A DNA stretch of 25,483 nt, taken from IMG/VR virus record IMGVR_UViG_3300048562_000006, positions 1-25,483 of that record. One strand, written 5' to 3'. Source of the stretch: a virus (lineage: Duplodnaviria; Caudoviricetes). The notes under the pieces were generated by a model. That model saw only the letters and a list, made by a program, of their open reading frames with translations, searched no databases and had not been told where the DNA came from. Position 1 is the first letter of the stretch; every line of letters starts with the position of its first letter. Below are positions 6,913-20,072 of the stretch, one piece after another. A program made the position numbers and the translations under genes.

Positions 6913-9372
6913 TCAATCGTTGTAGTATTGTCCGGCTGGAGCAGGGCCGGGCTTCAGGGATAGGCCGACGATAATCATACTCCCCGATTTTCGCTTGCCA
7001 AATCCCCGCGATTCAAGCCGCGCAGAGAATCGCTTTTGCGATACCGGCATTTCACCGCGCTCCTGTACAAAATGCCGATATGATTTATAGGCATCGCTTG
7101 CCCTGCATTCCCCGCCGAGGTCGCAACTCTCGTGTATCCATGCAGCTAAGGTATCCTCGTCGTCCAGATAATCCTTGGTCGCCTCTTCCACGGCTTCCGG
7201 TTTGCCGAGGCCGTAATCCTGCCACGCTAGACATCCGTCAATCGCCCATTGCAGGATTGCAGGCCATTCAGCGCGGAGTTTCTCGGGTAGGTCGTATATG
7301 CGATCCTCGACCGGAACGGCACCAGGGAAATTGACTAAGTGCATGCGTCGGCGGATTTCTTCGCCTGTGGATTTTAGGGAGGGCCGGAAGTTGGCCCCAA
7401 TAATGAGTTTCCCTTGAGGCCGAAATGTAAAAGGTGACTGATATAGCCGCCGCGCAGATATCGTATCGCGCCCGGTGATTAGCTTTAAGAGCGCCTCGTT
7501 CCACCGACTCCCTTCTTCCGGTTCGCTGGCCCGAATCATCCTTGCTCCTGCTATCTCTGCCATTTCCGAGCTATGCCGCTCAATTTTGCTTTCCATGAGC
7601 ATTTCGATTTTCGCTGTGACGCAATAGTCCCCGAGCATATCTCCTAGACAGTCGATAAATTTTGATTTGCCGGAGTTGCCCTCGCCAACTACTAGCAACA
7701 TAGCTTCTTCGCGGCAATCCCCGGTAAGCATATATCCGGCCCATCGCTAGTAGTAATCACGCATTGAGTCATCGCCGTTTGTGCATCGCGCTAGCACGCT
7801 GTCCCAATACGGCATCGGGCCGCGCTTTGGGGAGACTGCGGTTATTTTGGTTATGTGCATTTCCGGCGTTGCTTCGATAAGCTTGCCTTCGCGCAGATCA
7901 ACTACACCGTCCGGCGTGCCGAGCAACCACGGATCAGAATCAAAATCGGCGGCCAGCATGGCATGGTTCTTTTCCCGCCCAGCTAGATACAGCACATTGC
8001 GAATCATGCCGCGACTGCAAATCGAGTTTTTCTGACTGCGGGAGAGATTTCCGGAACCGGGCCAAGTGACCACCTCGCGCATCTTTCGCAGCGTTTCGGG
8101 GACTATGGATTCCTTTTCGTCCATAAGCCACCTTACGCTATCCCATTTAAGCCATTTATCCCAAGCCGCGACGTATTTCCACGCGCCATCCGCTGATGCG
8201 CTCCATGCTTGCGCTAGGGCGTCTTCGCTAAACTCTGGTGGCAGGTATTCGGCAATCTGGACATCGCGCTTGCGGACAAGTGCGCCTTCAAACTCGATGA
8301 TCTCTGCTGTAGCCTGATGGCTTTCCGGCTTTGATACAGCCTCTATGGGCGGTTTTTCTGATGGGGTTGATACCTCGGCATTGCTAGCGGCTTCAATGGC
8401 GTCTGATTCTGTTTTTTTTTCCATCGCCTCAACTTTCTGCCGTAGCCGATCATCCTCGATTTCCTGCGATGTTACACGCTTCAATCTTTCCCTCGCCCAT
8501 ACTACCGCTTGCGCCCCATCCCAATCAACTGCGTCGCCTAAATCCCACGCCTCGGGCATATCAGTTGTGTCTATAAGTTCTACGGTGCAGTTTATTGCCA
8601 ACAGGAATCCGGCGATTGTTCGCATTGCGGCCATCCCCGGAGCGTCTGCATCCGGGCACAAGATAACGTGTCGGCCTGATAGTGGCGTCCAATCTATGTG
8701 CCATACCGCGTCCGATCCGCCTGGCCATGTCATGCACACCATGCCGCCGATCAATGCTTGCGCTGCGTCTGCGGCCTTCTCGCCTTCGCACAATAGCACC
8801 TTTGCATCTGGTCGCTTCGCCAGTATATCCAGACCGTATAGAGGGCGTGGCGATGGCCATGTCAGGGATCGCCATTCAAGCGGGGCGGCTATCTCTCCGA
8901 ACCGGCCAAACGTCCACGGGCGGTAAGTCTCGCGCCCATCTTTTATGTAACGGCAAACGAAGCCGATTGTCTGCCCGGCTTTGTCATAGTATCGCCAACT
9001 TGCTGTAGGTTCGCCAAGCCCTTTAATGGCAAAGCTGGCTGGCTTCGTATCTGTCGGGTGCGTATGCCACTTGCCGCTAGTGGTGAGGACTTCTTTGATT
9101 GGCGTTAGGGTTGTCGGCGTGTAGTTCTCGCCTTCGACTATTTTCTTAGCGGCCTTGAATCCACAGCTTTCCATACGCATAACGAAAGCGTAAGCATCAT
9201 CATGCGTAGGGCACCCGAAGCAATGCGCGATCCACTTTTCCCCATTGTGATACACGGACATTGACGGCGTTTCGTCAAGGTGCGCCGGGTTATAGCAGCA
9301 ACACTCGTAACGGTTTCCCCTCTCCTTGAGCTTGATGCCGTAGGAGAGCATTATTTCCGGTAATTCGCGCAT
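6913..9372 (-). pseudogene. P4/D5-type primase-helicase (Zn-binding domain, TOPRIM, D5_N, SF3 ATPase) interrupted by one in-frame TAG at 7749-7747
   Basis: ORF 7747-9372 (CHC2-like H..D..PS..CFGC; EGEKAADA; PDADAPG; WLLGTPDGVVDLREG) and ORF 6913-7731 (GEGNSGKS; LKLITGRDTISARRLY) share a frame and read DYY*RWAGYMLTG across the junction. Confidence 0.85.
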
Positions 9373-9479
9373 TGACGTAAAAGTCGGATTTTTAGTATTG
9401 CTTGTTGTTAAGAATCAATGTGATGCGTTGGTGCGACGGTTTGTTTTACGTCAATTAGGACGTCTACTTCACGTTATGT
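9373..9479 (+). other. attI-like site 1 (core GTTATGT at 9473-9479)
   Basis: TTAGGACGTCTACTTCAC-GTT; the core pairs with R'' of the next attC; no attC left half; 12-bp inverted repeat ATTGACGTAAAA at 9371-9382 and 9444-9455. Confidence 0.65.
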
Positions 9480-9480
9480 G

Positions 9481-10140
9481 TCAAAGCAGCGCCTCCTGTA
9501 CCGCCGCCGGTTTCGGTTCCGGTGGCAGCAGTTGGCCCTGCGCCTGTGCCCGCGAAATCCGCTCGCAGGCCAAATCGAAATACTTGCGCTCGCGTTCAAT
9601 CCCGGTGAATGTTTTGCCCAGCATCGCGCAGGCAACCCCGGTCGTTCCGCTGCCCATGAATGGGTCGCAAACCGTCTCAGCGTTCGCCACCTTGTCAATG
9701 CACCACGCCATCAAGTCAATCGGTTTCTGTGTCGGGTGCTCTTTCCCGCCGTCCATGTTCATCGGGCGCTTGCGGAAAATCCTCGCCACCGCGTCAATGC
9801 TTGTCCAAGCCATCTCACAGTCCGCAAAGTCGCGCCCGTCGTTCTGTTTGTCCCAAATCAGGAAGCACCGCGCCGGCCCCATCGTGTAGTAGTTGCCGCC
9901 CCACACAATCAAGTCTCGCGCCCAGTCGTGCAGCATCAGCATCAACCATTGCGGCACAGGCTTGTCGTCCCAGGTCTCGCCGCCGTGCCCCCGGCTGGTT
10001 GCCAGTCTGTGGCTCTTGTTAATCCCAATGCCGTAGGGTGGGTCAGTCAAAATCAGGTCGCTCTGCGGCAGCAAAGGCAAAACCTCGCGGCAGTCCCCGT
10101 GCCACAACTCCGCATTCCCGATCACTACTTTTTCCGCCAC
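9481..10140 (-). CDS. DNA methyltransferase, N6-adenine/N4-cytosine, beta class (cassette A1)
   Basis: LTDPPYG, HPTQKP and DPFMGSGTT motifs; GTG start at 10140 with an RBS (alternative ATG at 10194). Confidence 0.92.
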   Translation of the reverse strand: MAEKVVIGNAELWHGDCREVLPLLPQSDLILTDPPYGIGINKSHRLATSRGHGGETWDDKPVPQWLMLMLHDWARDLIVWGGNYYTMGPARCFLIWDKQNDGRDFADCEMAWTSIDAVARIFRKRPMNMDGGKEHPTQKPIDLMAWCIDKVANAETVCDPFMGSGTTGVACAMLGKTFTGIERERKYFDLACERISRAQAQGQLLPPEPKPAAVQEALL

Positions 10141-10190
10141 TTCGTTTCCTTTCTTCGCCGTACCGCCAGCGCCGACTTTTACCGTTTGAC

Positions 10191-10258
10191 CCATAACACG
10201 TCGCTCAACACGGACGCAGGCGATAAAGCCGCCTGCGCCGGTTAGCTAGGCGTTAGGC
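10191..10258 (+). repeat. attC site A1
   Basis: CCATAAC...GCT[C]AAC[A]CGG...CCGGTTAGC...GTTAGGC, 68 bp, with two unpaired bases. Confidence 0.9.
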
Positions 10259-10557
10259 GTCCGTCTGTTCCACGCTGCTATCGCCTCTTCCTTGGTGTCG
10301 CCATGAATCTCGGCACCGCATCCACCGTAGTTCGTGGCGCAATGAATCCCCCAGCACCATTGCTCTTTCGGCACTTCTAGGGTGCGGCGGTATGTGCGCA
10401 GCCCGATTTCTTCGTCATCCTTCCATCCGGTGCCGGACGGGTACATCGTATCCTCACCAACTTCGCCGTTGTCATGCATTGGTTTCCCACAAAACGGGCA
10501 CGGCAGCAGCCTAACAAGTACGTCAACCGGACCTTGCGCAATAACCGTCGTTTTCAT
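10246..10557 (-). CDS. Lar-like (restriction alleviation) Zn-finger protein (cassette A2)
   Basis: LLPCPFCG...C...GCGA...EEAIAAWNRR; RBS and start lie inside attC A2. Confidence 0.8.
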   Translation of the reverse strand: MKTTVIAQGPVDVLVRLLPCPFCGKPMHDNGEVGEDTMYPSGTGWKDDEEIGLRTYRRTLEVPKEQWCWGIHCATNYGGCGAEIHGDTKEEAIAAWNRRTPNA

Positions 10558-10602
10558 CTTCAAGACCTTCCGGCGCAAGGCCGGTTACCTAGATCGTTAG
10601 CC
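10509..10602 (+). repeat. attC site A2
   Basis: GCCTAAC...GT[C]AACCGG...CCGGTTAC...GTTAGCC, 94 bp. Confidence 0.88.
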
Positions 10603-10603
10603 A

Positions 10604-10924
10604 TCATGATCCAGCATCCAGCAGTAGCTGCGACAGCAGGTAACAAAACGGCTCGCCTCCTGCGTCCCGTGGGTCGATCCCGCACCGCTCGAACAGATGC
10701 AGTACCGCGTGCGAAAGTTCGTGGGCGAGGGTATGCGGCTGCGCTCCCCAAACGAGGTACGTCCACATTCCGTCTTTCCCTTCGCCGCCGGAGAACCGCC
10801 CTTCCTGCGCGCACGTCAGAACGTCCGGCGTCTTGAACAGCTTCCTGTGCGCCTTCTCGTACCCTTTTGCCGTCTTCGCCACGAACAGCCGCCCGTGGTA
10901 CGGTCGCAGTGAAAGCTCGCGCAT
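10604..10924 (-). CDS. Hypothetical protein with an HExxH motif (cassette A3)
   Basis: TLAHELSHAVLH...EPFCY; fills the cassette. Confidence 0.75.
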   Translation of the reverse strand: MRELSLRPYHGRLFVAKTAKGYEKAHRKLFKTPDVLTCAQEGRFSGGEGKDGMWTYLVWGAQPHTLAHELSHAVLHLFERCGIDPRDAGGEPFCYLLSQLLLDAGS

Positions 10925-10927
10925 GAT

Positions 10928-10996
10928 GGCTAACCCTGCGTTCCAGCGGAGGCTGCGCCATGAAGCGGCGCATCCCCGCTGAACTCTACGTTATAC
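10928..10996 (+). repeat. attC site A3
   Basis: GGCTAAC...GTT[C]CAGCGG...CCGCTGAAC...GTTATAC, 69 bp. Confidence 0.9.
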
Positions 10997-11200
10997 AACT
11001 CGCTCTCTCAGCTTCGCGGTCAGCACGGCGCACTTTGCAGCACTCTGCGCCGACGACTGAATCACGAATCCCATGTAATCCTCAAGCCAGTCAATCGCAT
11101 CGCGCGAAAGCTCAGGATTCAAAAACCCTTTGTCAAAAAGCGTCGTTGTCAGGTCTTTCGCTTGGCGCTGGTAGTAAGGTTCCACTGTTATTTCGCTCAT
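10991..11200 (-). CDS. Hypothetical protein (cassette A4)
   Basis: GGAGG RBS, starts MSEITVEP; TAA stop lies within the core site. Confidence 0.75.
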   Translation of the reverse strand: MSEITVEPYYQRQAKDLTTTLFDKGFLNPELSRDAIDWLEDYMGFVIQSSAQSAAKCAVLTAKLRERVV

Positions 11201-11213
11201 ACTTTCCTCCGTT

Positions 11214-11281
11214 GTATAACTAATCGTTCCAGCGGAGCTACGCAATAAGGCCGCGTAGCCCGCTGAACTCAGACGTTAGAG
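11214..11281 (+). repeat. attC site A4
   Basis: GTATAAC...GTT[C]CAGCGG...CCGCTGAAC...GTTAGAG, 68 bp. Confidence 0.9.
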
Positions 11282-11532
11282 CGCAAATCCTCAACAAACT
11301 TTGTTGCGCTCGGAACGTCAGCCCATGCTTTCGTGCCACGCTCAATAGCTATCGCCAGATCGACGGCGTTCTTTGCAATTGCTTCAGCGTCTTTTCTTCC
11401 ATTTCTGTACCCGGCCATGTATGCGGACTTGCAAGCGCCATCAATTTCTGACAACTGCGCCTGAGAAACACGCCCGAATAGTCTGGTCAGCTTCTCGCTC
11501 CGTTTTTTCCAGTCAGTGAAACTCATGTTCAT
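11269..11532 (-). CDS. Hypothetical protein (cassette A5)
   Basis: GGAG RBS, MNMSFTDW...RSNV; stop lies inside attC A4. Confidence 0.7.
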   Translation of the reverse strand: MNMSFTDWKKRSEKLTRLFGRVSQAQLSEIDGACKSAYMAGYRNGRKDAEAIAKNAVDLAIAIERGTKAWADVPSATKFVEDLRSNV

Positions 11533-11550
11533 ACTCCGTGGTTGTTTGCG

Positions 11551-11613
11551 CTCTAACATTCCGGTCCAGCAGATCGGCCGCAAGCGGCCTCCTGCTGACC
11601 TACAGCGTTAGCG
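11551..11613 (+). repeat. attC site A5
   Basis: CTCTAAC...GGT[C]CAGCAG...CTGCTGACC...GTTAGCG, 63 bp. Confidence 0.9.
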
Positions 11614-11828
11614 GGCTGGCAACTAATCGTGCATTCAATGTCATTGGATGGGTATGCCTTGCGTTGACACCAAATGATGCTGCCCCACACGCCATCAATG
11701 ATCCTTCTAGCTTGCGTGTCGGTAAGGTTTGTGATGGTCAGCGTAACCAAATCGCCCGCTAACCCGGCAGTCGACACGGACTGTCCGACGATGCCTTCGC
11801 TTGCGTTCTGTGGTTGCTCGTCGCTCAT
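11553..11828 (-). CDS. Hypothetical protein (cassette A6)
   Basis: AAGGA RBS and ATG inside attC A6; reads through attC A5. Confidence 0.6.
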   Translation of the reverse strand: MSDEQPQNASEGIVGQSVSTAGLAGDLVTLTITNLTDTQARRIIDGVWGSIIWCQRKAYPSNDIECTISCQPANAVGQQEAACGRSAGPEC

Positions 11829-11878
11829 CGCTATTCCTTTACTTTGTCCCCGGCCAGCCGGTCACTTGGGACGTAGAG
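11757..11878 (+). repeat. attC site A6 (long loop; R' lacks one T)
   Basis: CGCTAAC...AGT[C]GAC[A]CGG...CCGGTCACT...GTAGAGC; GTTAGAGC is expected from the partner core GCTCTAAC. Confidence 0.8.
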
Positions 11879-12183
11879 CGCATGTCGATTTCGCGCTCAC
11901 AATTCGCCGCCGTCAGCCGCGCCATGCGTGCGCTCTTGCAATCGAGCGTTTCGCCATCCTCCGGCCAAATGTCGGTTGGGTACTGCGCGGCTATCTTGCG
12001 GCAAGCCTCTTTGCAGGCTCCGCGCTCTGCTGCCGTTATCAGGTCTGCGAACCTTTGCAGTTCTTCCCACGTTGGCGCGTCAGCTAACGCCGCCATGTCG
12101 CCGACCATCACAGCAATGCCAGCATCAATAGCGGCTCTAACTGTCACGTCGTTCGGACCTGCCGCAATAGGCGCATCAGGCAT
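11839..12183 (-). CDS. Hypothetical phage protein (cassette A7)
   Basis: AAGGA RBS and ATG inside attC A7; LQRFADLITAAERGACKEAC resembles common phage 'AEREAC' proteins. Confidence 0.7.
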   Translation of the reverse strand: MPDAPIAAGPNDVTVRAAIDAGIAVMVGDMAALADAPTWEELQRFADLITAAERGACKEACRKIAAQYPTDIWPEDGETLDCKSARMARLTAANCEREIDMRSTSQVTGWPGTK

Positions 12184-12228
12184 CTTCAATCCTTTCCGAG
12201 CGGCAGTCCGCACACGTTGGCGTTCGGC
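12135..12228 (+). repeat. attC site A7
   Basis: CTCTAAC...CGGACCTGCCGC-loop-GCGGCAGTCCG...GTTCGGC, 94 bp. Confidence 0.78.
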
Positions 12229-12497
12229 GTCGCGCTTCTCGCGCTGTAATGCGGCACGGACTCGCCAGTGACATCCCATACCGTTGTCGCTCCTGTTGTG
12301 CAGTCCTTTACCGACACCCTGACAGTCTTGTTCTTGCCTGCTATGTCGTATTCAGCGCCGTTCATGTCGTGCCACTCGGCCCACCGTGAAGCCATCTCTC
12401 GCGGCCCTTCCCAAGTGTCGGCGGTTCCCTTAATTGCGTCACCTTCACTTTCTCCGTACTCCTCGCACCACATCAGGTACTTTCGCTGCTCACTCAC
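12186..12497 (-). CDS. Hypothetical protein (cassette A8)
   Basis: AGAGGA RBS and GTG start; the C-terminus (TPNANV...) is encoded by attC A7. Confidence 0.75.
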   Translation of the reverse strand: MSEQRKYLMWCEEYGESEGDAIKGTADTWEGPREMASRWAEWHDMNGAEYDIAGKNKTVRVSVKDCTTGATTVWDVTGESVPHYSARSATPNANVCGLPLGKD

Positions 12498-12991
12498 GGT
12501 CTATCCTCTCTGCGGGCCGAACCCGCGCTTCGAGCGGGACTGTCTGCAAGCTGCGCTTGAATCCAGCCCCTCAAGCTAAACGTGTGGGTCGCAAGCCATG
12601 CCACAAGCTCATCCGCGTCACGAAATACAGACCAAGCCGCATCCGCGTCGTCATAGTGCGTGTAGTAACTGTCTCCGTCGTGGTTGTAGTCAGCGCCAAC
12701 TTGTACGCTTGTCGGGTTTCCGTTCGCGTCTCGGTGCCAGCGCAGCAAGCTCGGCCCGCCATGCAGAGGTAGCGCGGTTGCCGCGTCCTGCCACATATTG
12801 TCGCCCTCAAACTTTGCAAAGTGCGGATGTTTCGGGTAAATGTAGGCGTACACACACCAGCGGTTCTCCCCTTCGCTTGCATGCGTCGTCAGCCGCTCAC
12901 TGTCGTATGTCGGCGTCGTGTGATGACTCACCTCAACACAGAAGCCTTCTCCGCGCCGGTGCCAGAGTTCTTTCCGTTTCCAGTTGTCCAT
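12494..12991 (-). CDS. Hypothetical phage backbone protein
   Basis: GGGGAAG RBS; WCVYAYIYPKHP and QVGADYNH motifs; the 3' end reads through attC A8. Confidence 0.8.
   Translation of the reverse strand: MDNWKRKELWHRRGEGFCVEVSHHTTPTYDSERLTTHASEGENRWCVYAYIYPKHPHFAKFEGDNMWQDAATALPLHGGPSLLRWHRDANGNPTSVQVGADYNHDGDSYYTHYDDADAAWSVFRDADELVAWLATHTFSLRGWIQAQLADSPARSAGSARREDRP
12516..12589 (+). repeat. attC site A8 (terminal; degenerate R' GTGTGGGT)
   Basis: GCCGAAC...GCTT[C]GAG[C]GGG...CCCCTCAAGC...GTGTGGGT. Confidence 0.78.
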
Positions 12992-13004
12992 TTACTTCTT
13001 CCCC

Positions 13005-13544
13005 TCAAAAGTCGGCGCCCTCAACTTGTACGTTAATCGCCCTCAACACATCCTCCGCACAAGTAGCAAATATCCCCACTCCGCCAGCATCGCGCACCAT
13101 CTGTAGAAATGCGGCTTGTTCATGTTCATGTGCCTTTTGCGGCTTAATCCAGTCTCGACGCTTTCCATCAATTGCGAATAACCGAAAATCGGTTAGCAAT
13201 CCCCAAAAATCCACAATAGTCATATCTATATCTTCTGGCGTCTTGATGATATTGTAGAACCAGACTGGTACGTCTATTAGATTCCCATGCTTGTCGCGCC
13301 TTGTATAGGATGCTGCTCCTGTATTTTGCCTTACGGCAAATAGAACTTTTGGATGATTTGCTAAACACTCACTTATATCTGAATTGACAGCCGCCTCTAG
13401 CTCATCCTTTGGTGAGTGGTTCTTTATCTCGCGCTTCGGCTTGACATCGATATGCACAGTCTGTGGCTTGCCGTACATTGCGGCCCATGCGTCCAGCCCT
13501 TTCTGGTTCTCGCGGAGTGTTTCGCGGAGAGGTTTTTTAGGCAT
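13005..13544 (-). CDS. VRR-NUC / PD-(D/E)xK-type nuclease
   Basis: DFWG...FAIDGK...EQAAFLQMVRDAGGVG pattern. Confidence 0.75.
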   Translation of the reverse strand: MPKKPLRETLRENQKGLDAWAAMYGKPQTVHIDVKPKREIKNHSPKDELEAAVNSDISECLANHPKVLFAVRQNTGAASYTRRDKHGNLIDVPVWFYNIIKTPEDIDMTIVDFWGLLTDFRLFAIDGKRRDWIKPQKAHEHEQAAFLQMVRDAGGVGIFATCAEDVLRAINVQVEGADF

Positions 13545-13553
13545 TATGACAGA

Positions 13554-13852
13554 TCAATATGGCACGTCATCAGCCATATCATTAAACCCGCCATCCTTCG
13601 TGCTGCCCGGCTGGTATCCGTTCGCCTTGGCATCTGAATGCGCTGCCTGTGCTGGAGTAACCTCGCGTTCCTTCGGCACGAAAAAAGATACCCACCCAGA
13701 CCAATTCGGCCCTACAGGAATGGATTCGAGCTTGAGCGACATATACTTCCCGTCGTCTGACTCGAACACTGCGCCGATATTGACGTAGCGTTTCTTTGTT
13801 TGTCCATTTATTCGCCTACTGATGCCACGGCGTCATAAAGCTTTTTAGCCAT
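13554..13852 (-). pseudogene. Small ssDNA-binding-like protein with an apparent frameshift near 13809
   Basis: A coupled ATG at 13852 gives MAKKLYDAVASVGE*; a second frame continues NGQTKKRYVNIGAVF... and ends in the SSB-type acidic tail FNDMADDVPY. Confidence 0.6.
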
Positions 13853-14229
13853 CATTCACCTTTCATGTTAAGCAACTCGTTGTAAATCCTATCCACGATA
13901 CCGGCAACTGATTCGTATTCAACCATGAACCGATCATTGCCCATAGCGACTTCAAACGCTTTCCACGCGGCAACTTGCTTCTTTGTCAGTTCGCGTTTTC
14001 TAGGACGCATTTCAAGGCAGTCGCGTATAACATCGCGCATCCTGTCCTCATTTTCCAGAATTGCAGCCAGCAGGTTAGCGCGATCAGGATTGATGCCGAT
14101 ACGCACAAACTTTGATCCGGGCTTGCAATAGATGATATGAAACCCCTGCGGCCATCCGTCAATCCTTGCGTACTCTGCAACAGGGACATATCTGCGGCCC
14201 CTTTGTTCGTACCACGTCGTTGATTGCAT
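13852..14229 (-). CDS. Hypothetical protein (125 aa)
   Basis: GGAGG RBS; TGATG coupling to the next gene. Confidence 0.8.
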   Translation of the reverse strand: MQSTTWYEQRGRRYVPVAEYARIDGWPQGFHIIYCKPGSKFVRIGINPDRANLLAAILENEDRMRDVIRDCLEMRPRKRELTKKQVAAWKAFEVAMGNDRFMVEYESVAGIVDRIYNELLNMKGE

Positions 14230-14303
14230 GGTTCCTCCAAGTTATTGCCGGTTATACGTTACCGGCAAACGCTGGCACTAATTTTCTCCAGCCGCCACCG
14301 CAG

Positions 14304-14531
14304 TTAAAGATTGCGGCTCTTATGCTCCCGTTCCCTGGTCAGAGGAAGGGCGGGATCATCCATTGCCATTACCTTGTAAGCCTGCCGCACCGGACATTCT
14401 ACGCCCTCCACATGAGCGATAAAAGCTGCGAGGAAGCCGAATGCTTCGTTGCCTGATCGCATCGGAATGTCCAGCGCGAATGTCGGCATGTTGGGTAGCG
14501 TAATTCTGGCTCTGATGCTTTGCGATGGCAT
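14304..14531 (-). CDS. Hypothetical protein (75 aa)
   Basis: ORF in operon direction starting right after attI-like element 2; weak RBS. Confidence 0.5.
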   Translation of the reverse strand: MPSQSIRARITLPNMPTFALDIPMRSGNEAFGFLAAFIAHVEGVECPVRQAYKVMAMDDPALPLTREREHKSRNL

Positions 14532-14637
14532 TTTAGGACGTACTATATTCGGCTAAGTTGTTGATGGATTAGGCCATTAGTTGCTGATATTCGTCTGTTT
14601 ATGTACCATTTTTTAGGCTCCCTACTTCTAGTTGGGG
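14532..14637 (+). other. attI-like site 2 (core GTTGGGG at 14631-14637)
   Basis: TTAGGCTCCCTACTTCTA-GTT; the core GTTGGGGGTC is exactly complementary to GACCCCCAAC at 14932-14941; a second TTTTAGG copy lies at about 14531. Confidence 0.65.
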
Positions 14638-14897
14638 GTCAATGCGGCTTCTATCCGATCCGCTAAGTCGTTTCCTTGTATATTTAAATCGCGGTGGTCA
14701 AGATTTGATAGCGCGTCTCTCAATAATGTTCGCAATAGCCTGTTTTCTTCTAGGCATTCCTTGTGTCCATCCGCGTTTGCTTCAATCACTCGGCGCAGGT
14801 CGTGTATTTCCGTCGCAGCGTCCATGCACCGGCATTGCAGTTCGTGGCTGCTTTCGTTCGTGCTGCTGTTCTTAAGCCGAATCAAAATGTCCTGCAT
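14628..14897 (-). CDS. Hypothetical coiled-coil protein (cassette B1)
   Basis: GGAG RBS; DAATEIHDLR...AALTPN; stop lies in the attI-like site. Confidence 0.75.
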   Translation of the reverse strand: MQDILIRLKNSSTNESSHELQCRCMDAATEIHDLRRVIEANADGHKECLEENRLLRTLLRDALSNLDHRDLNIQGNDLADRIEAALTPN

Positions 14898-14934
14898 CGC
14901 GTTCTCCAAAAGTCAGTCTCTCCAGCACGGCGAC

Positions 14935-15004
14935 CCCCAACATTCCGGTGCAGGGGAGCCGTGCAAGCTACGCTTGCCCGTCCCCCTGACCTTGCACGTT
15001 CGGC
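14935..15004 (+). repeat. attC site B1
   Basis: CCCCAAC...GGT[G]CAGGGG...CCCCTGACC...GTTCGGC, 70 bp. Confidence 0.88.
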
Positions 15005-15005
15005 G

Positions 15006-15320
15006 TCACACCCGTTTGCCGCCGTGCCTGTGTCCGCGTCCCTTGTTCTTCTCCATCTTCGCCCGCTCCGCCGCGTCGATGTCGAGTCCAAGCCCGCCCG
15101 CGCAATCCAGCACGCGAATCAGCGTGTCCGCCAGTTCTTCCTCGAAGTTCGCCTTGTCGTCGTGCCTAAACGCTTCAAGGGCTTCGGAAACCTCGCTGTG
15201 AATAAGCGCCAGTATTCCTGGGATTTTGTAGGTGTCTGCCCATTGCTCAGGTTCCAGCACCTTCCAGCCGTTTGCGCGGTTGATGTTGTTGATTTCTTTC
15301 GCAAGCTCGTTCATGCTCAT
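15006..15320 (-). CDS. MazG-like nucleotide pyrophosphohydrolase (cassette B2)
   Basis: LIHSEVSEALEAFR...EEELADTLIRVLD; AAGGAG RBS. Confidence 0.88.
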   Translation of the reverse strand: MSMNELAKEINNINRANGWKVLEPEQWADTYKIPGILALIHSEVSEALEAFRHDDKANFEEELADTLIRVLDCAGGLGLDIDAAERAKMEKNKGRGHRHGGKRV

Positions 15321-15347
15321 GCCTTCTCCTTAGTTGAAAGTCAGTCC

Positions 15348-15417
15348 GCCGAACACGGCGGTGAAGAGGGACGCCTGCCAGCTACGCTGTCAGTCGCCCC
15401 TTACCTCTACGTTGGGC
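15348..15417 (+). repeat. attC site B2
   Basis: GCCGAAC...GGT[G]AAG[A]GGG...CCCCTTACC...GTTGGGC, 70 bp. Confidence 0.88.
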
Positions 15418-15421
15418 GTCT

Positions 15422-15661
15422 TCATGCAACCTGCTCGCTGTCCAGCATCAATCCCCATCCGAGCGGCCTTGACGATAGCGACCCCGTATCTTCTTCGTGC
15501 GTCCAACGGTGATTACAGTTTCCGCACTCATGACTATCTCCGTCGCGGCCCACGTTCTCCGCTCCGCACTTTGGGCACTCGGGCATTTCTTCCCAATGGT
15601 TTTCACCGCAGCATCCCAGCTTTTCGCCTCTCGGCTCTCCGCAATACCCGCAAACTTCCAT
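15422..15661 (-). CDS. Small Cys-rich Zn-ribbon protein (cassette B3)
   Basis: CGYC, CCGENH, CPKC and CGNC; AAGGAG RBS. Confidence 0.75.
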   Translation of the reverse strand: MEVCGYCGEPRGEKLGCCGENHWEEMPECPKCGAENVGRDGDSHECGNCNHRWTHEEDTGSLSSRPLGWGLMLDSEQVA

Positions 15662-15691
15662 TCCGTTCTCCTTTCTTCTGGTCGGCAAGAC

Positions 15692-15748
15692 GCCGAACCC
15701 TACATTCAACCGGACGCAGTTCCGGCGCCGGTTAATTCCACGTTAGCA
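15692..15748 (+). repeat. attC site B3
   Basis: GCCGAAC...ATT[C]AACCGG...CCGGTTAAT...GTTAGCA, 57 bp. Confidence 0.9.
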
Positions 15749-15752
15749 GTCG

Positions 15753-16010
15753 TCATATCGTGAACGGCTCTTGCAAATCCTGCCAAGGAATAACCCGCGC
15801 CGCTTCCAGTTCGCGGATCGAGGCTTTTGCGTCCATGCCGGCTTTTTCCAGTTCCGCCTTGCCTTCCGGTGTCGCCATCCAAGCGCGCACCGCATCGGCT
15901 TGCACCTGTGCGGGTGAGCGCAGGAACGTCGGGACGGGAAAGACTGCTAACCCGTCGGTCGACGCGGACTCCGCGCCATCAGCCTTCGTTTTTGCGTTGT
16001 CAGTGCTCAT
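15753..16010 (-). CDS. Hypothetical protein (cassette B4)
   Basis: GGAG RBS and ATG inside attC B4. Confidence 0.7.
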   Translation of the reverse strand: MSTDNAKTKADGAESASTDGLAVFPVPTFLRSPAQVQADAVRAWMATPEGKAELEKAGMDAKASIRELEAARVIPWQDLQEPFTI

Positions 16011-16067
16011 GCCTTGTCTCCATCTTGTAGGTCGTTGGCGCGGAGCCGGTCACCTAGGACGTTATAC
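15945..16067 (+). repeat. attC site B4 (long loop)
   Basis: TGCTAAC...GGT[C]GAC[G]CGG-ACTCCGCGCCA-loop-TGGCGCGGAG-CCGGTCACC...GTTATAC, 123 bp. Confidence 0.88.
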
Positions 16068-16147
16068 GTAATGAACCGTTTGCCGACTTTACGGCCCGGT
16101 TTGCCCTGCACCACGGCGATCACAGGTTGGGGTTTTGAATTGCCCAT
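16007..16147 (-). CDS. 46-aa basic peptide (mini-cassette B5)
   Basis: MGNSKPQPVIAVVQGKPGRKVGKRFITYNV...; the TGA overlaps the next ATG; weak RBS. Confidence 0.4.
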   Translation of the reverse strand: MGNSKPQPVIAVVQGKPGRKVGKRFITYNVLGDRLRANDLQDGDKA

Positions 16148-16179
16148 TCTTGCTATAGGCTCACAATTTTAAGCATCAC

Positions 16180-16235
16180 GTATAACTGTGCTTTCGAGCG
16201 GGACGGCTTCGCCGCCCCTCAAAGCGGCGTTAGCC
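16180..16235 (+). repeat. attC site B5
   Basis: GTATAAC...GCTTT[C]GAG[C]GGG...CCCCTCAAAGC...GTTAGCC, 56 bp. Confidence 0.88.
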
Positions 16236-16667
16236 CTTAACGTCAACGTATTCCGTCGTCGGCGTGTATGGGAATGTCACTGGCACACAGCTATCGCCGC
16301 TGGTGTAGCTGCCGCCGTTCGGATCACGAAAGACGCGCCCTTGTGTGTCGTAGGCTTGCCCGTTGAAACGATCGGCCTGCTTGAATACGTGCGAACAGCG
16401 TTTGTTCTGAAACACGCCGTCGCTTGCTTCGTGCCACTCGTGGTCTTCGCCGGTTAGCGGCCCTAGCGGTTCAAACATCGCCAACTTCTCGAACACGCCA
16501 ACACAGTACGGCGCGGACGATCCGCTGTGCCCTTGCTCAGAAAAAACGCGCAGTAGCTCCATCACGTTCTGCTGAATCCATTTGTTTGGCCCATCTTCCT
16601 CTTCGTTAATCGGCTTGTAACCGAGCGCGAGGAATTCGCGCTTTGCATGCTCTACCAGATTGCTCAT
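16230..16667 (-). CDS. Conserved phage hypothetical protein (cassette B6)
   Basis: FSEQGHSGSSA...PLTGEDHEW...FQNKRCSHVFK...VTFPYTP; AGAGGA RBS; TAA lies in the core site. Confidence 0.85.
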   Translation of the reverse strand: MSNLVEHAKREFLALGYKPINEEEDGPNKWIQQNVMELLRVFSEQGHSGSSAPYCVGVFEKLAMFEPLGPLTGEDHEWHEASDGVFQNKRCSHVFKQADRFNGQAYDTQGRVFRDPNGGSYTSGDSCVPVTFPYTPTTEYVDVKG

Positions 16668-16690
16668 GTTCTTTCCTCTCTTCGTAATAG

Positions 16691-16757
16691 GGCTAACTAA
16701 TCAATCAACCCGGACGTGCCGATAATGCCGGCACGCCGGTTATTTCAGCCGTTAGTA
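16691..16757 (+). repeat. attC site B6 (terminal)
   Basis: GGCTAAC...AAT[C]AACCCGG...CCGGTTATT...GTTAGTA, 67 bp. Confidence 0.88.
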
Positions 16758-16964
16758 ATACTCCCGATCAATCTTAAGCTTCCCGCCAGTAATCACGTAA
16801 AGCTGAAATTGCCTCAGTTCAGGCACGCCTTTCCGTTGCCATCCCTTCAGTAGTTGCCGATAGATGCCATACTTGGCAAGTTCCATCTTCGCTTCACGGC
16901 TCAAAGGCAGTCCGCGTTCCCTAGGTTTCCCGCCGTAATGGCGAATGATGTCATCGTATGTCAT
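16752..16964 (-). CDS. Cro-like HTH transcriptional regulator
   Basis: MTYDDIIRHYGG...W...VPELRQFQLYVITGGKLK, an N15/P22 Cro-like pattern; first gene of the leftward operon. Confidence 0.75.
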   Translation of the reverse strand: MTYDDIIRHYGGKPRERGLPLSREAKMELAKYGIYRQLLKGWQRKGVPELRQFQLYVITGGKLKIDREYY

Positions 16965-16970
16965 GGCTGG

Positions 16971-17046
16971 ATTAAATCACACTAAAAAACAATTTGCAAG
17001 ATGTACTGAAAAATAACTTGACATTTTTTTTGCTATCTGCCAAAGT
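16971..17046. promoter_or_regulatory. Divergent sigma70-type promoters
   Basis: Leftward TTGCAA-17-TTTAAT (16999-16971); rightward TTGACA at 17018-17023 with a weak -10. Confidence 0.6.
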
Positions 17047-17076
17047 GACCATACGCAATCACACAGGGGTATCACC

Positions 17077-17283
17077 GTGGCAATCGAAATGAACATCTTT
17101 GAAGGCGAGTCTGTCGCCATCACGAATCACATTGGAACGTCCGGTAGCAAATGGGTCAAGATCGTAGTCCGCGACGTGCATAACCAGCGGCATGAGATTC
17201 ACATCATTCCGGCTGATTCGCAGCGCAACATGGCGTTTTTTATCGGCTGCGACGAGATTGATACTAACAAGGAGGCTGCATAA
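17077..17283 (+). CDS. Hypothetical protein (68 aa)
   Basis: AGGGG RBS, GTG start, TAATG coupling. Confidence 0.7.
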   Translation: MAIEMNIFEGESVAITNHIGTSGSKWVKIVVRDVHNQRHEIHIIPADSQRNMAFFIGCDEIDTNKEAA

Positions 17284-17522
17284 TGGCTGAAGGCAAGAAG
17301 GGCCGCATGACTCGCAGCATTATCACCGCCCTAACCGGCCAGCCTGAACCGCCCTGCACGGTATTCCAATGCCAGCACGCTATGGAGTGCGCAGAATGCC
17401 GCAAAGCCTGTATGTCGTTCTATCGCTATGTCACCAGCGCATCGGGGCGATTCCCTGCTGGATATAGTTTCCGCGAACCGACTGACTTTTACTACCTCAA
17501 AATATTTGAGGGGGAGGAATGA
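17283..17522 (+). CDS. Cys-rich hypothetical protein (79 aa)
   Basis: AAGGAGG RBS; PC...C...C..C...C pattern. Confidence 0.7.
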   Translation: MAEGKKGRMTRSIITALTGQPEPPCTVFQCQHAMECAECRKACMSFYRYVTSASGRFPAGYSFREPTDFYYLKIFEGEE

Positions 17523-17523
17523 A

Positions 17524-18141
17524 ATGAAAATTGAAATCAAGTGCCGCTTTACTGGAAACGTATTGTTCTCGCATGATGTTGAAAACAATTCTATGCGCTT
17601 AACCATAGAGGCTGCCGTTGCGGCACGGGCCAACATGGCACGGGCCAACATGGAAGGGGCCTACATGGCACGGGCCAACATGGCAGGGGCCTACATGGCA
17701 GGGGCCTACATGGCAGGGGCCAACATGGAATGGGCCAACATGGCACGGGCCAACATGGCAGGGGCCAACATGGCAGGGGCCAACATGGAAGGGGCCTACA
17801 TGGCAGGGGCCTACATGGCAGGGGCCAACATGGAAGGGGCCTACATGGCAGGGGCCAACATGGCAGGGGCCAACATGGAAGGGGCCAACATGGCAGGGGC
17901 CGATCTGGATGGTGAAATCTTGAAGATAGCTCCACTATCTCTGATGAATCTCAAATGGAGTGTGCTGATAACCGCCGAGTGCATGCGGATCGGTTGCCAG
18001 CGCCACAAGCATGAGGAATGGGCGGCGTTTGACGATGATGAGATTAAAGGAATGGCCAGCGGCGCTAATGAGTTCTGGCGCGATTGGAAAGAGCCGCTTA
18101 TGCTGCTTTGCGCACGCCACAAGGAACAGGCCGCAAAATGA
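17524..18141 (+). CDS. Pentapeptide-repeat protein (Met-centred repeats)
   Basis: [16 protein letters not shown]-terminus, 18 x [AE][GRW]A[NY]M repeats, C-terminal [11 protein letters not shown] domain. Confidence 0.9.
17623..17907 (+). repeat. 15-bp coding tandem repeat, 19 units
   Basis: Consensus G[CA]A[GC]GGGCC[AT]ACATG. Confidence 0.95.
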
Positions 18142-18350
18142 CAACCTACATCGTCTATCGGCAAGACACTCCGATACCCACAGGCCGCAAGATCAACAAG
18201 TTTGGCGAATTCGACAAGCGCGGCGAGTACGATGAGCATTCAGCGAATCTGGTTGCACTCGGTCATGTTACCGCAGCGTCCAATGACGATGCGTGGAAGC
18301 AGGCCAAGCGGATGACTCTTAAACCTGTATTGGAGGAGATAAAGGAATGA
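18138..18350 (+). CDS. Hypothetical protein (70 aa)
   Basis: ATGA overlaps at both ends. Confidence 0.7.
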   Translation: MTTYIVYRQDTPIPTGRKINKFGEFDKRGEYDEHSANLVALGHVTAASNDDAWKQAKRMTLKPVLEEIKE

Positions 18351-19060
18351 GCGAACAACAATTTCATCATGAAGTAATGTCAGAGAGAGAAATGAAAGAT
18401 AACTTGGGCGTCTACAAAGCCATCGCAGCCATTACCGCCGCTATGGCTAAGGAGGGCATCGGCAAGAACCGCAAGAATCAGCAGCAAGGGTATTCCTTCC
18501 GAGGTATTGACGATATCTACAATGTACTGTCAGGGATGCTGGCCGAAAACGGGTTGTGCATCATTCCGCGCATCCTTAGCCGTGTTTGTGAGGAGCGTAC
18601 AACGCAGAAGGGTAACGCTCTTTTTTATGTTACTGTGGAAGCCGAATACGATCTTGTCGCGGCTAAGGATGGAAGCAAGCATACTGCAAAGGTATTCGGT
18701 GAGGCGATGGATAGCGCCGACAAGGCTACCAACAAAGCCATGAGTGCGGCTTACAAGTACATGGCTTTCCAGACTTTTGCTATTCCAACAGAAGGCGACA
18801 ATGATGCTGATTCTGTTACGCATTCCGTTGCCCCTGCAAAGAAACCGCCAGAACCTTACGACTACAACAAAGCCTTCGATGACATGGCCGAGGCCGTGAG
18901 CTTGCCGCAGCTTCAGTCTATCTTTGCTCCTGCATACAGACACGCGCAAGACGATGGAAATACCGACATGCTTGCAGAGGTCAAAGCGAAGTACGAGTAT
19001 TTCAAGGCCAAGCTCGCGGCCAACGATGCGAAGAAAGCGCCGGAAGGAGAGGTAATCTAA
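18347..19060 (+). CDS. erf: ERF-family single-strand annealing protein
   Basis: GYSFRGIDDIYN...GEAMDSADKATNKAMSAAYKY...FAIPTE. Confidence 0.85.
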   Translation: MSEQQFHHEVMSEREMKDNLGVYKAIAAITAAMAKEGIGKNRKNQQQGYSFRGIDDIYNVLSGMLAENGLCIIPRILSRVCEERTTQKGNALFYVTVEAEYDLVAAKDGSKHTAKVFGEAMDSADKATNKAMSAAYKYMAFQTFAIPTEGDNDADSVTHSVAPAKKPPEPYDYNKAFDDMAEAVSLPQLQSIFAPAYRHAQDDGNTDMLAEVKAKYEYFKAKLAANDAKKAPEGEVI

Positions 19061-19245
19061 TGCCCAAATGCAGATCATGCGGATGCACGCTAGGCTGTGA
19101 CTCGGACAGCGGCGAGTACATCAAGGAAACTGGCGAGTTCGTTTGCGACGGCTGCTATGATCCTTACTGCAACGAGGATATCAACGACGATTACGAACGG
19201 ACAGACAAGACGGCACCGCTAACCGACATAGGAGGAATAGAATGA
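19060..19245 (+). CDS. Small Zn-finger protein (61 aa)
   Basis: CRSC...CDGC; GAGG RBS; TAATG coupling. Confidence 0.7.
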   Translation: MPKCRSCGCTLGCDSDSGEYIKETGEFVCDGCYDPYCNEDINDDYERTDKTAPLTDIGGIE

Positions 19246-19397
19246 ACCTACTCCACCGCATCTGGCTGCGTCATCTTCGATTCTGGCATACCATCGACCT
19301 TGACGCGGCGCTGCAAACAGAAAATTGGGATATGGCTACCGATTGCAGGCTGCGCATCGCTGAGTGTGACAGGCAGATTGACGGGCTGGCGTTATGA
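19242..19397 (+). CDS. Hypothetical protein (51 aa, MNLLHRIWLRH...)
   Basis: AGGAGG RBS; ATGA overlaps on both sides. Confidence 0.65.
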   Translation: MNLLHRIWLRHLRFWHTIDLDAALQTENWDMATDCRLRIAECDRQIDGLAL

Positions 19398-19651
19398 CCG
19401 GCCTAACTCCAATCGTCTCACTGTCCATGCTCTGCGGCGTGCTGGTAACGTCCAATATTGCCAGCCTGATGCACGCCAATGATATGAGGCATAAAGCCGC
19501 TATTGCCGAAGCCAATCTGGTGCAAGCCGAGCGCAAATGGATGGCGTGCCATAACGACGGCGTCTATACTGTGGGCACGGACATCTATTTGAGCAAGGTT
19601 AGGAAAAGCGAGATGACTACGGCACAGGTTTATGAGGTTAGCGGGTTGTAA
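19394..19651 (+). CDS. Hypothetical membrane-anchored protein (85 aa)
   Basis: Hydrophobic N-terminus; its TAA stop forms part of the attC C1 core (TAAC). Confidence 0.7.
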   Translation: MTGLTPIVSLSMLCGVLVTSNIASLMHANDMRHKAAIAEANLVQAERKWMACHNDGVYTVGTDIYLSKVRKSEMTTAQVYEVSGL

Positions 19652-19732
19652 CGTGTAGGTGACCGGCGCTGCGCGGCTTCATCGCGCAGCGTCCAGAGAG
19701 CGAAGCGAACGAGGTCGACCGTAGGGTTATGC
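19646..19732 (-). repeat. attC site C1 (inverted relative to arrays 1 and 2)
   Basis: Minus strand reads GCATAAC...GGT[C]GACC...GCTGCGCGATGAAGCCGCGCAGC...GGTCACC...GTTACAA, 87 bp. Confidence 0.88.
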
Positions 19733-19754
19733 CTCATTGGTAAAAGGAGTTGAT

Positions 19755-19949
19755 ATGTGGTGCTGGCACAAGTGGGGAAAGTGGAGCGACCCGACAAACG
19801 GCATTTACTCGCCCTTCGGGCCGACCGGATACAGTGAGGTTGGATACTTCGCTGTGGCGCAAATGCGGATTTGCGAAAAGTGCGGAGTAGCGCAGCATCG
19901 CACGCTGCCGAAGGTGCGAAGCCTGGCATCCCTGAAGGGAGAACGGTGA
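19755..19949 (+). CDS. Small hypothetical protein (cassette C1)
   Basis: AAGGAG RBS; CWHKWGKW...QMRICEKCG. Confidence 0.75.
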   Translation: MWCWHKWGKWSDPTNGIYSPFGPTGYSEVGYFAVAQMRICEKCGVAQHRTLPKVRSLASLKGER

Positions 19950-19950
19950 G

Positions 19951-20072
19951 GCATAACTAGAAGTAGACACCCTAATTGAATTGCGAAATGGGGCGCAGCA
20001 AACGCTAATGTACGTTGATAATCAATGCCAATCCGAGACGCTAATCTGATATTAGCAGGGGGCGCGTAAATT
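19951..20072 (-). other. attI-like site 3 (core GTTATGC at 19957-19951)
   Basis: Minus strand reads CAATTAGGGTGTCTACTTCTA-GTT, with the same motif and spacing as sites 1 and 2. Confidence 0.65.

Follow-up and report, generated by a model that had tools for sequence, protein, structure and literature searches.

The stretch analysed here (the window) is the 25,483 nt of virus record IMGVR_UViG_3300048562_000006, a fragment of a tailed phage estimated to be 67% complete, in which Pfam and PHROG searches identified portal, terminase, primase-helicase, Cro-like regulator, ERF, endolysin and tail collar genes. Bioreactor metagenomes contain the same phage, which assembles in one run as a closed circle of ~39.6 kb; ~14 kb is therefore unseen, in a gap that is bounded by the tail-side end of the window and its portal-side end and corresponds to the structural region. 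Distributed among these phage genes are 15 attC-type sites of 56–123 bp, the recombination sites of integron gene cassettes, which form three arrays: eight sites in 9473–12588 (array 1), six in 14631–16757 (array 2) and one in 19646–19957 (array 3). They are listed below with a half site that closes array 1; all 15 were recovered by the covariance model described below, and those marked "grammar" by the structural grammar as well.

attC1: 10191–10258, + strand, 68 bp, grammar
attC2: 10509–10602, + strand, 94 bp, grammar
attC3: 10928–10996, + strand, 69 bp; the population deletion described below has its left boundary at the G (10990) of this R' core
attC4: 11214–11281, + strand, 68 bp, grammar
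attC5: 11551–11613, + strand, 63 bp, grammar
attC6: 11757–11879, + strand, 123 bp; R' GTAGAGC at 11873; right end of that deletion
attC7: 12135–12228, + strand, 94 bp, grammar
attC8: 12516–12588, + strand, 73 bp; R' GTGTGGG at 12582
half attC: 13019–13038, + strand; L' box, spacer and G/TTAATC at 13032; distal end of array 1
attC9: 14935–15004, + strand, 70 bp, grammar
attC10: 15348–15417, + strand, 70 bp, grammar
attC11: 15692–15748, + strand, 57 bp, grammar
attC12: 15945–16067, + strand, 123 bp
attC13: 16180–16235, + strand, 56 bp, grammar
attC14: 16691–16757, + strand, 67 bp, grammar; R' core contains the stop codon of the cro-like gene 16752–16964
attC15: 19646–19732, - strand, 87 bp, grammar; R' core contains the stop codon of backbone gene 19394–19651

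The structural grammar (AAC, a 5-base spacer, an L'' box with an extra base, a loop, an L' box and GTT, with a folding constraint) returned 12 sites within 9373–20072 and none elsewhere in the window; 30 dinucleotide shuffles gave a mean of 1.0 sites and a maximum of three. A looser hairpin scan had lacked specificity. A covariance model trained on 36 bacterial attC sites, 23 of them from intI-linked loci, recovered all 15 sites at E ≤ 0.0024, the next matches lying at E 0.19 (the opposite strand of one site) and E 0.84; because the training sites were chosen with the same grammar, this test is not fully independent. The original prediction of 15 attC sites in three arrays, made from the letters alone, thereby holds, as does its expectation that an attC covariance model would recognise them. 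Its strongest argument, that the cores flanking a cassette complement each other rather than the other end of the same linear attC, was likewise borne out: the first 10 bases of a cassette agree with its own R'' at a mean of 8.8 of 10 positions against 6.4 of 10 for the same linear site, the own-end match is greater in 14 of 15 cassettes, and the observed sum was reached in 0 of 100,000 permutations. All sites show the R''-L''-loop-L'-R' architecture with the extra L'' base, and the bottom strand folds at least as well as the top in 14 of 15 (three sites being 1–2 bases off register). The GTT core attributed to every site is present in 13; the altered R' cores at 11873 and 12582 resemble 1-base indels at the crossover (GTT to GT and GTT to GTGT) and are possibly recombination scars.

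The eight attC sites of array 1 stand, and its end shifts to the half site at 13019–13038, which falls inside the 3' end of backbone gene 13005–13544; array 1 therefore includes a ninth gene. At the same backbone position, full attC sites close the arrays of two relatives (G001, L255; G and L numbers are our labels for the sequences compared), and a third relative (G002) has a GTT core.

The array heads are attI sites and not attC sites. None of the three forms a hairpin, and all carry the common motif TTAGG-N4-CTACTTC-NN-G|TT, which at two or fewer mismatches occurs three times in the window, only at these heads, against 0.02 occurrences expected.

attI-A: 9430–9479, + strand; head of array 1; crossover G/TT at 9473; motif match
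attI-B: 14590–14637, + strand; head of array 2; G/TT at 14631; motif match
attI-C: 19951–20072, - strand; head of array 3, with a 115-bp upstream module common to other phages; G/TT at 19957; motif match

attI-A is identical at 30 of 32 nt to the intI-linked site in two loci (L165, L225) of Accumulibacter metagenome-assembled genomes (MAGs), attI-B matches intI-linked Rhodocyclaceae sites at 81% over 37 nt, and attI-C matches heads in G002, L070, L186 and L214 at 79–86% over ~113 nt. A backbone gene begins 100–116 bp upstream of each phage attI, in the place of intI; for attI-A this is the primase, whose start codon lies 101 bp upstream in the divergent position occupied by intI in bacteria. 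A tighter attI pattern searched in GTDB genomes gave 75 loci, largely in Beta- and Gammaproteobacteria, of which ~30 are estimated to be expected by chance; an integron integrase or its remnant lies divergently just upstream in 27 of the 75, and nine of ten upstream open reading frames (ORFs) tested scored beyond the TIGR02249 cut-off. These loci supply an attI consensus for a wide, mostly uncultured integron clade and allow a host to be inferred from attI type. In IMG/VR the motif matched 70 times, eight times with a same-strand attC directly downstream; most of the 70, having no attC, are likely chance matches.

With at least two attC sites within 4 kb and intI not nearby, the arrays are by definition clusters of attC sites lacking an integron integrase (CALINs; Cury 2016); they are integron-like in working and not a complete integron. 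Sedentary chromosomal integrons in Accumulibacter, Rhodocyclaceae, Rugosibacter and Competibacteraceae MAG loci share the attI motif, the attC families and insertion at G|TT, whereas the phage has a phage gene instead of intI beside attI, three attI sites per genome and antisense cassette genes; its cassettes are shorter (median 377 bp, n = 43, against 631 bp, n = 27), and their expression is predicted to come from phage operons, as opposed to the cassette promoter (Pc) of chromosomal integrons. IntI also places cassettes outside integrons, where attC may later decay, as in attG insertions and single attC sites lacking an integrase (SALINs; Loot et al., bioRxiv 2022.09.11.507474); the targets of attG insertion are dispersed GWT sites, whereas the phage heads are conserved attI copies.

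That the hairpins are RNA signals (terminators, processing sites or repeats like the promoter-early stem-loops, PeSLs, of T4-type phages) merely resembling attC has next to no probability. They do lie between genes on mRNA, and four overlap translation starts; however, they match a model of bacterial integron attC, follow attI and show core complementarity across cassettes, while promoter-like sites (5 against 7.4 by chance, none within attC) and terminator-like sites (10 against 12.1) are at chance level. An Rfam scan gave nothing relevant and one chance match. PeSL cassettes resemble the arrays in that small variable phage genes are shuffled at intergenic motifs (PMC2839356, PMC4122927), but those motifs are promoter-terminator elements and the window sites are integron att sites with no promoter excess; the repeated promoter and stem-loop between variable genes was not found in the window. 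An RNA signal is thus contradicted as the primary role of the hairpins, which may have an added RNA role.

Cassettes are gained and lost at G|TT, and this cassette-exact variation is seen directly inside one phage population. A variant without cassettes 4–6 (10991–11873, 883 bp) occurs in bioreactor runs X16, X17, X18 and X21, where a 56-nt unitig with zero mismatches joins 10987 to 11871 through four bases (ACGT) that fit either side. The skip includes the G|T crossover of attC3 and attC6, and the main contigs break at the same nodes. Depth in X16 is 25.4, 17.3 and 21.2 across the skip region and 10.3 at the joint; the variant is an unpolarized presence/absence difference. A primase search for relatives returned one in IMG/VR and one short metagenome contig (an ERF-based search gave 76 distant loci, which were left unused). 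Relative G001 (primase 89%) aligns to 9476, in the attI core, breaks, and resumes at 13018; its array has two other cassettes, the first of which is homologous to window cassette 5 and is paired with another attC. In contigs L252 and L186, whose flanks are 98% identical, the same attI is empty in L252 and holds one 327-bp antisense cassette, inserted exactly at G|TT, in L186; a second attI leads into different arrays in the two. The complete relative G002 (primase 61%, helicase 72%) has ~15 attC sites in arrays after the same types of backbone gene, with cargo almost wholly different from that of the window. The integron-type interpretation of the cassettes, and the expectation that gene differences among relatives would break at the cores (G001; L252/L186), are thus upheld, and the sites provide a site-specific mechanism for phage mosaicism.

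It is unlikely that these integron-derived sites now change independently of IntI, by replication slippage at hairpins or ERF-type annealing of similar attC sites. In its favour are the ERF gene of the phage, the two mutated cores, the site that has lost one half, the four bases common to the deletion ends, and the published account that slippage can remove folded attC (bioRxiv 2022.09.11.507474). Those four bases are, however, the only identity at the deletion; the empty and filled attI pair (L252/L186) differs precisely at G|TT and offers no repeat for annealing, cassette-end complementarity is retained in 14 of 15 cassettes, and attI is preserved in all three window copies as well as in several other phages.

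Turning to the cassette genes, the attC sites have + polarity in arrays 1 and 2 but - polarity in array 3, as set by the extra L'' base, the model strand and array topology (attI at one end), and the genes always lie on the opposite strand. Nine of the 15 antisense genes have a Pfam or PHROG match (two weak), against 0 of 19 sense-strand ORFs with a PHROG match. The stop codons of many fall at or close to the crossover core, those of the backbone genes upstream of arrays 2 and 3 lie within the last R' box, and four genes (cassettes 2, 6, 7 and 12) have a predicted start inside their own long attC loop with a ribosome site. The original prediction missed the three attI sites, this antisense polarity and the array variation.

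Cassette 1 gene: 9481–10140, - strand, N6/N4 DNA methyltransferase (PF01555, 69.6 bits; phrog_67); start codon inferred
Cassette 2 gene: 10246–10557, - strand, Lar-like restriction alleviation (phrog_599, E 6e-8; PF14354 below cut-off); start and ribosome-binding site (RBS) in attC2 loop
Cassette 3 gene: 10604–10924, - strand, unknown phage family (phrog_1365, E 3e-16)
Cassette 4 gene: 10991–11200, - strand
Cassette 5 gene: 11269–11526, - strand, weak phrog_19490 match; homologue is the first cassette of G001
Cassette 6 gene: 11553–11828, - strand, predicted start in attC6 loop
Cassette 7 gene: 11839–12183, - strand, no family match; predicted start in attC7 loop
Cassette 8 gene: 12186–12497, - strand, unknown phage family (phrog_21008, E 1e-15)
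Ninth gene of array 1: 12494–12991, - strand, 165 aa, no family match; reads through attC8; likely a fixed former cassette
Cassette 9 gene: 14628–14897, - strand, no family match
Cassette 10 gene: 15006–15320, - strand, MazG-like nucleotide pyrophosphatase (PF03819, 31.5 bits, cut-off 22; phrog_3301)
Cassette 11 gene: 15422–15661, - strand, small zinc-ribbon protein (PF08274, E 1e-4, below cut-off)
Cassette 12 gene: 15753–16010, - strand, no family match; predicted start and RBS in attC12 loop
Cassette 13 ORF: 16007–16147, - strand, 46 aa; stop overlaps the gene 12 start
Cassette 14 gene: 16230–16667, - strand, Tad3-family protein (anti-Thoeris family; PF25185, 133 bits, cut-off 27)
Cassette 15 gene: 19755–19949, + strand, unknown phage family (phrog_21493); homologue in L214

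Tad3 inhibits the Thoeris protein ThsB (PMC13728456), and the predicted cargo (methyltransferase, Lar-like, MazG and Tad3-like) hints at a set of counter-defence genes that rotates. Reversed cassettes after attI accordingly offer a mining rule for anti-defence genes, with these four already found there. A blastn search of INPHARED with array 1 gave matches limited to methyltransferase genes, in seven records. With regard to expression, the genes point towards attI, and of the promoter-like sites, which are at chance level, one (a 9/12 match) lies upstream of attI-B, an arrangement that does not correspond to Pc; RNA runs include the region but as contigs, from which strand and level are therefore unreadable.

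This cargo bears on whether the arrays could be inert segments acquired from a chromosomal integron of a host, which we consider very improbable. Their attC and attI families match integrons of Rhodocyclales/Nitrosomonadales type, and such captures occur in Vibrio prophages (Qi 2023, PMC9892861). The cargo, however, is of phage type and antisense, whereas most intI-linked host cassettes have the sense orientation (longest ORF, 26 of 27; codon score, 19 of 27). The bacterial loci examined gave no match to any cassette protein of the window. The arrays are inserted at stop codons within operons, their variation is by individual cassettes, and the array swap in G001, the 883-bp skip and the L252/L186 pair contradict inertness.

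No integrase of the phage itself was identified. The best PF00589 match in the window, at 12.9 bits and containing a stop, is below the cut-off, the complete phages G002 and G004 have no match, and tblastn with IntI queries gave no match in the window or any phage record. The integrase of G003, examined as a candidate, is an ordinary prophage integrase with no TIGR02249 match. Because no integrase was found in the phage, borrowing of a host integrase is likely. An IntI or IntI-like recombinase in the unseen part of the genome, which would make this a complete phage integron with three attI sites, is improbable: the record is 67% complete with ~14 kb unseen, but the gap is the structural region, the complete relatives G002 (~15 attC) and G004 have no PF00589 match, and the phage attI sites match those of chromosomal integrons. 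The host is probably a betaproteobacterium, because attI-A is identical at 30 of 32 nt to the Accumulibacter loci and a site of the Rugosibacter MAG G010 shares 89% identity with attC15 over 84 nt. Five candidate host MAGs compared with a 10.8-kb query gave short matches, mainly at att sites, and no long prophage-like match.

IntI takes the bottom strand of attC in folded form and recombines it with attI or attC (Cury 2016, PMC4889954), and phage attC sites are substrates of IntI1 in E. coli (Qi 2023, PMC9892861). We therefore consider it likely that a phage whose reversed attC arrays are headed by three bacterial-type attI sites and vary at G|TT uses a host IntI, probably betaproteobacterial, in trans to excise, capture and reorder cassettes; the dependence on IntI is read from sequence. 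In this scheme, host IntI would act during infection and bind the folded attC bottom strand, here the mRNA-like strand, and new cassettes would enter at attI, the promoter-distal end of each array. Leftward and rightward early/middle phage transcripts, rather than Pc, would express the cassettes, and stops in the G|TTA core together with starts inside long attC loops would keep the operon translatable after a swap.

Several points weigh against borrowing of a host IntI or against the reversed layout. Integrase searches in this phage cover 25.5 kb of the ~39.6-kb circle, leaving ~14 kb unseen, and the betaproteobacterial host is drawn from sequence likeness. The joint of the 883-bp skip has only 26 bases on each side, uses the non-consensus GTA core at attC6 and is not listed in runs X13 and X12; three of the four runs with it may come from the source sample or from a single campaign, and six runs, available as contigs only, showed no junction of an excised circle. 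The antisense figure for phages depends on method, because codon score and longest-ORF rule disagree: by codon score the genes are antisense in 39 of 43 walked phage cassettes against 8 of 27 in intI-linked bacterial arrays, whereas by longest ORF they are antisense in 23 of 43 and 1 of 27, respectively. The walk across phage records merged or missed some cassettes, and longest-ORF orientation calling is unreliable in GC-rich phage cassettes. Finally, phage G005 has apparently sense cassettes of non-phage families directly after attI and reversed phage genes further along, a layout that fits capture from the host pool, yet shows that reversal is not absolute.

A bolder proposal, which we hold at somewhat short of even confidence, is that certain phages form a class operating a mirror-image integron by means of the host integrase, with several copies of the host attI and a phage-specific, reversed counter-defence pool reshuffled during infection, and that reversal acts as a firewall. 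Reversal would keep cassettes useful only in the phage context; host cassettes, often anti-phage, would be silent in the phage and phage cassettes silent in a host integron, so that phage and host would share one enzyme in their arms race. Bacteria are known to bank resistance and anti-phage genes in integrons; the arrays described here show phages using the same kind of site for accessory and counter-defence genes of their own. The origin of cassettes, an open question, could also be studied in these arrays, which contain genes starting inside their own attC and half-decayed sites.

Clusters of attC sites in phages are not in themselves new, because Qi et al. 2023 (PMC9892861) described 17 phage CALINs, defined by a minimum of two attC sites, and found that five of six tested phage attC sites recombined with IntI1. 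Those CALINs, like the window, have clustered attC without intI and methyltransferase cargo. One (MW202573) has four attC by our covariance model in the same reversed layout, whereas that of phage TJE1 has an ordinary sense layout. The main text of that study is silent on antisense genes (its figures or Supplementary File 1 may show orientation), reports an attI only for the CALIN of a cryptic Shewanella prophage, against three in the window, and in the parts consulted shows no cassette polymorphism, against population and relative variation with 15 attC here. A literature search that left subscription journals and bioRxiv supplements outside its coverage found no description of attI-headed, reversed, host-driven phage arrays, and the available text of 2026 papers with attC and phage terms describes none. 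Within that search, the attI-headed, reversed and polymorphic form appears new.

Several further observations concern the att sites. The TAGG box was considered as the -10 element of Pc and rejected, as its last base varies and the promoter scan was at chance; a LexA-like box occurs at two bacterial heads and no phage head. An 11-bp inverted repeat (9372–9455) flanks the spacer between the primase start and attI-A, and a related palindrome lies immediately before the TAGG box in bacterial attI sites. Some bacterial MAGs carry two or three attI copies (L165/L203/L225, L189/L204/L223, L191/L218/L236), many beside truncated intI, a pattern indicative of repeated intI decay with attI retained. The attC15 sequence (19650–19730) matches many other loose-ended contigs in the same runs (bin depth 666 against ~26 in X16); co-occurring organisms therefore carry that attC family.

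Other arrays were noted in passing. G005 (L160:12400–16400) has two near-identical attI sites and a mixture of cassettes in sense and antisense orientation, with endonuclease VII and methyltransferase genes among them. The first cassette of a chromosomal Rhodocyclaceae integron (L189:3761–3943) is spanned by a 60-aa antisense ORF with a ribosome site and no PHROG match, possibly a phage-type cassette in a host. Reversed-array contigs filed in Omnitrophota, Saccharibacteria, Peribacteria and Gammaproteobacteria MAGs (L186, L214, L227 and L212) look like phage contigs, and the L212 array is that of G004.

Elsewhere in the window, the primase-helicase is interrupted by a stop at 7747–7749, likely an assembly error or rare variant; all four runs examined have G at 7749, and a relative has the primase-helicase as one 818-aa gene. 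A pentapeptide-repeat gene with 15-bp tandem units lies at 17630–17900, where assemblies break up.

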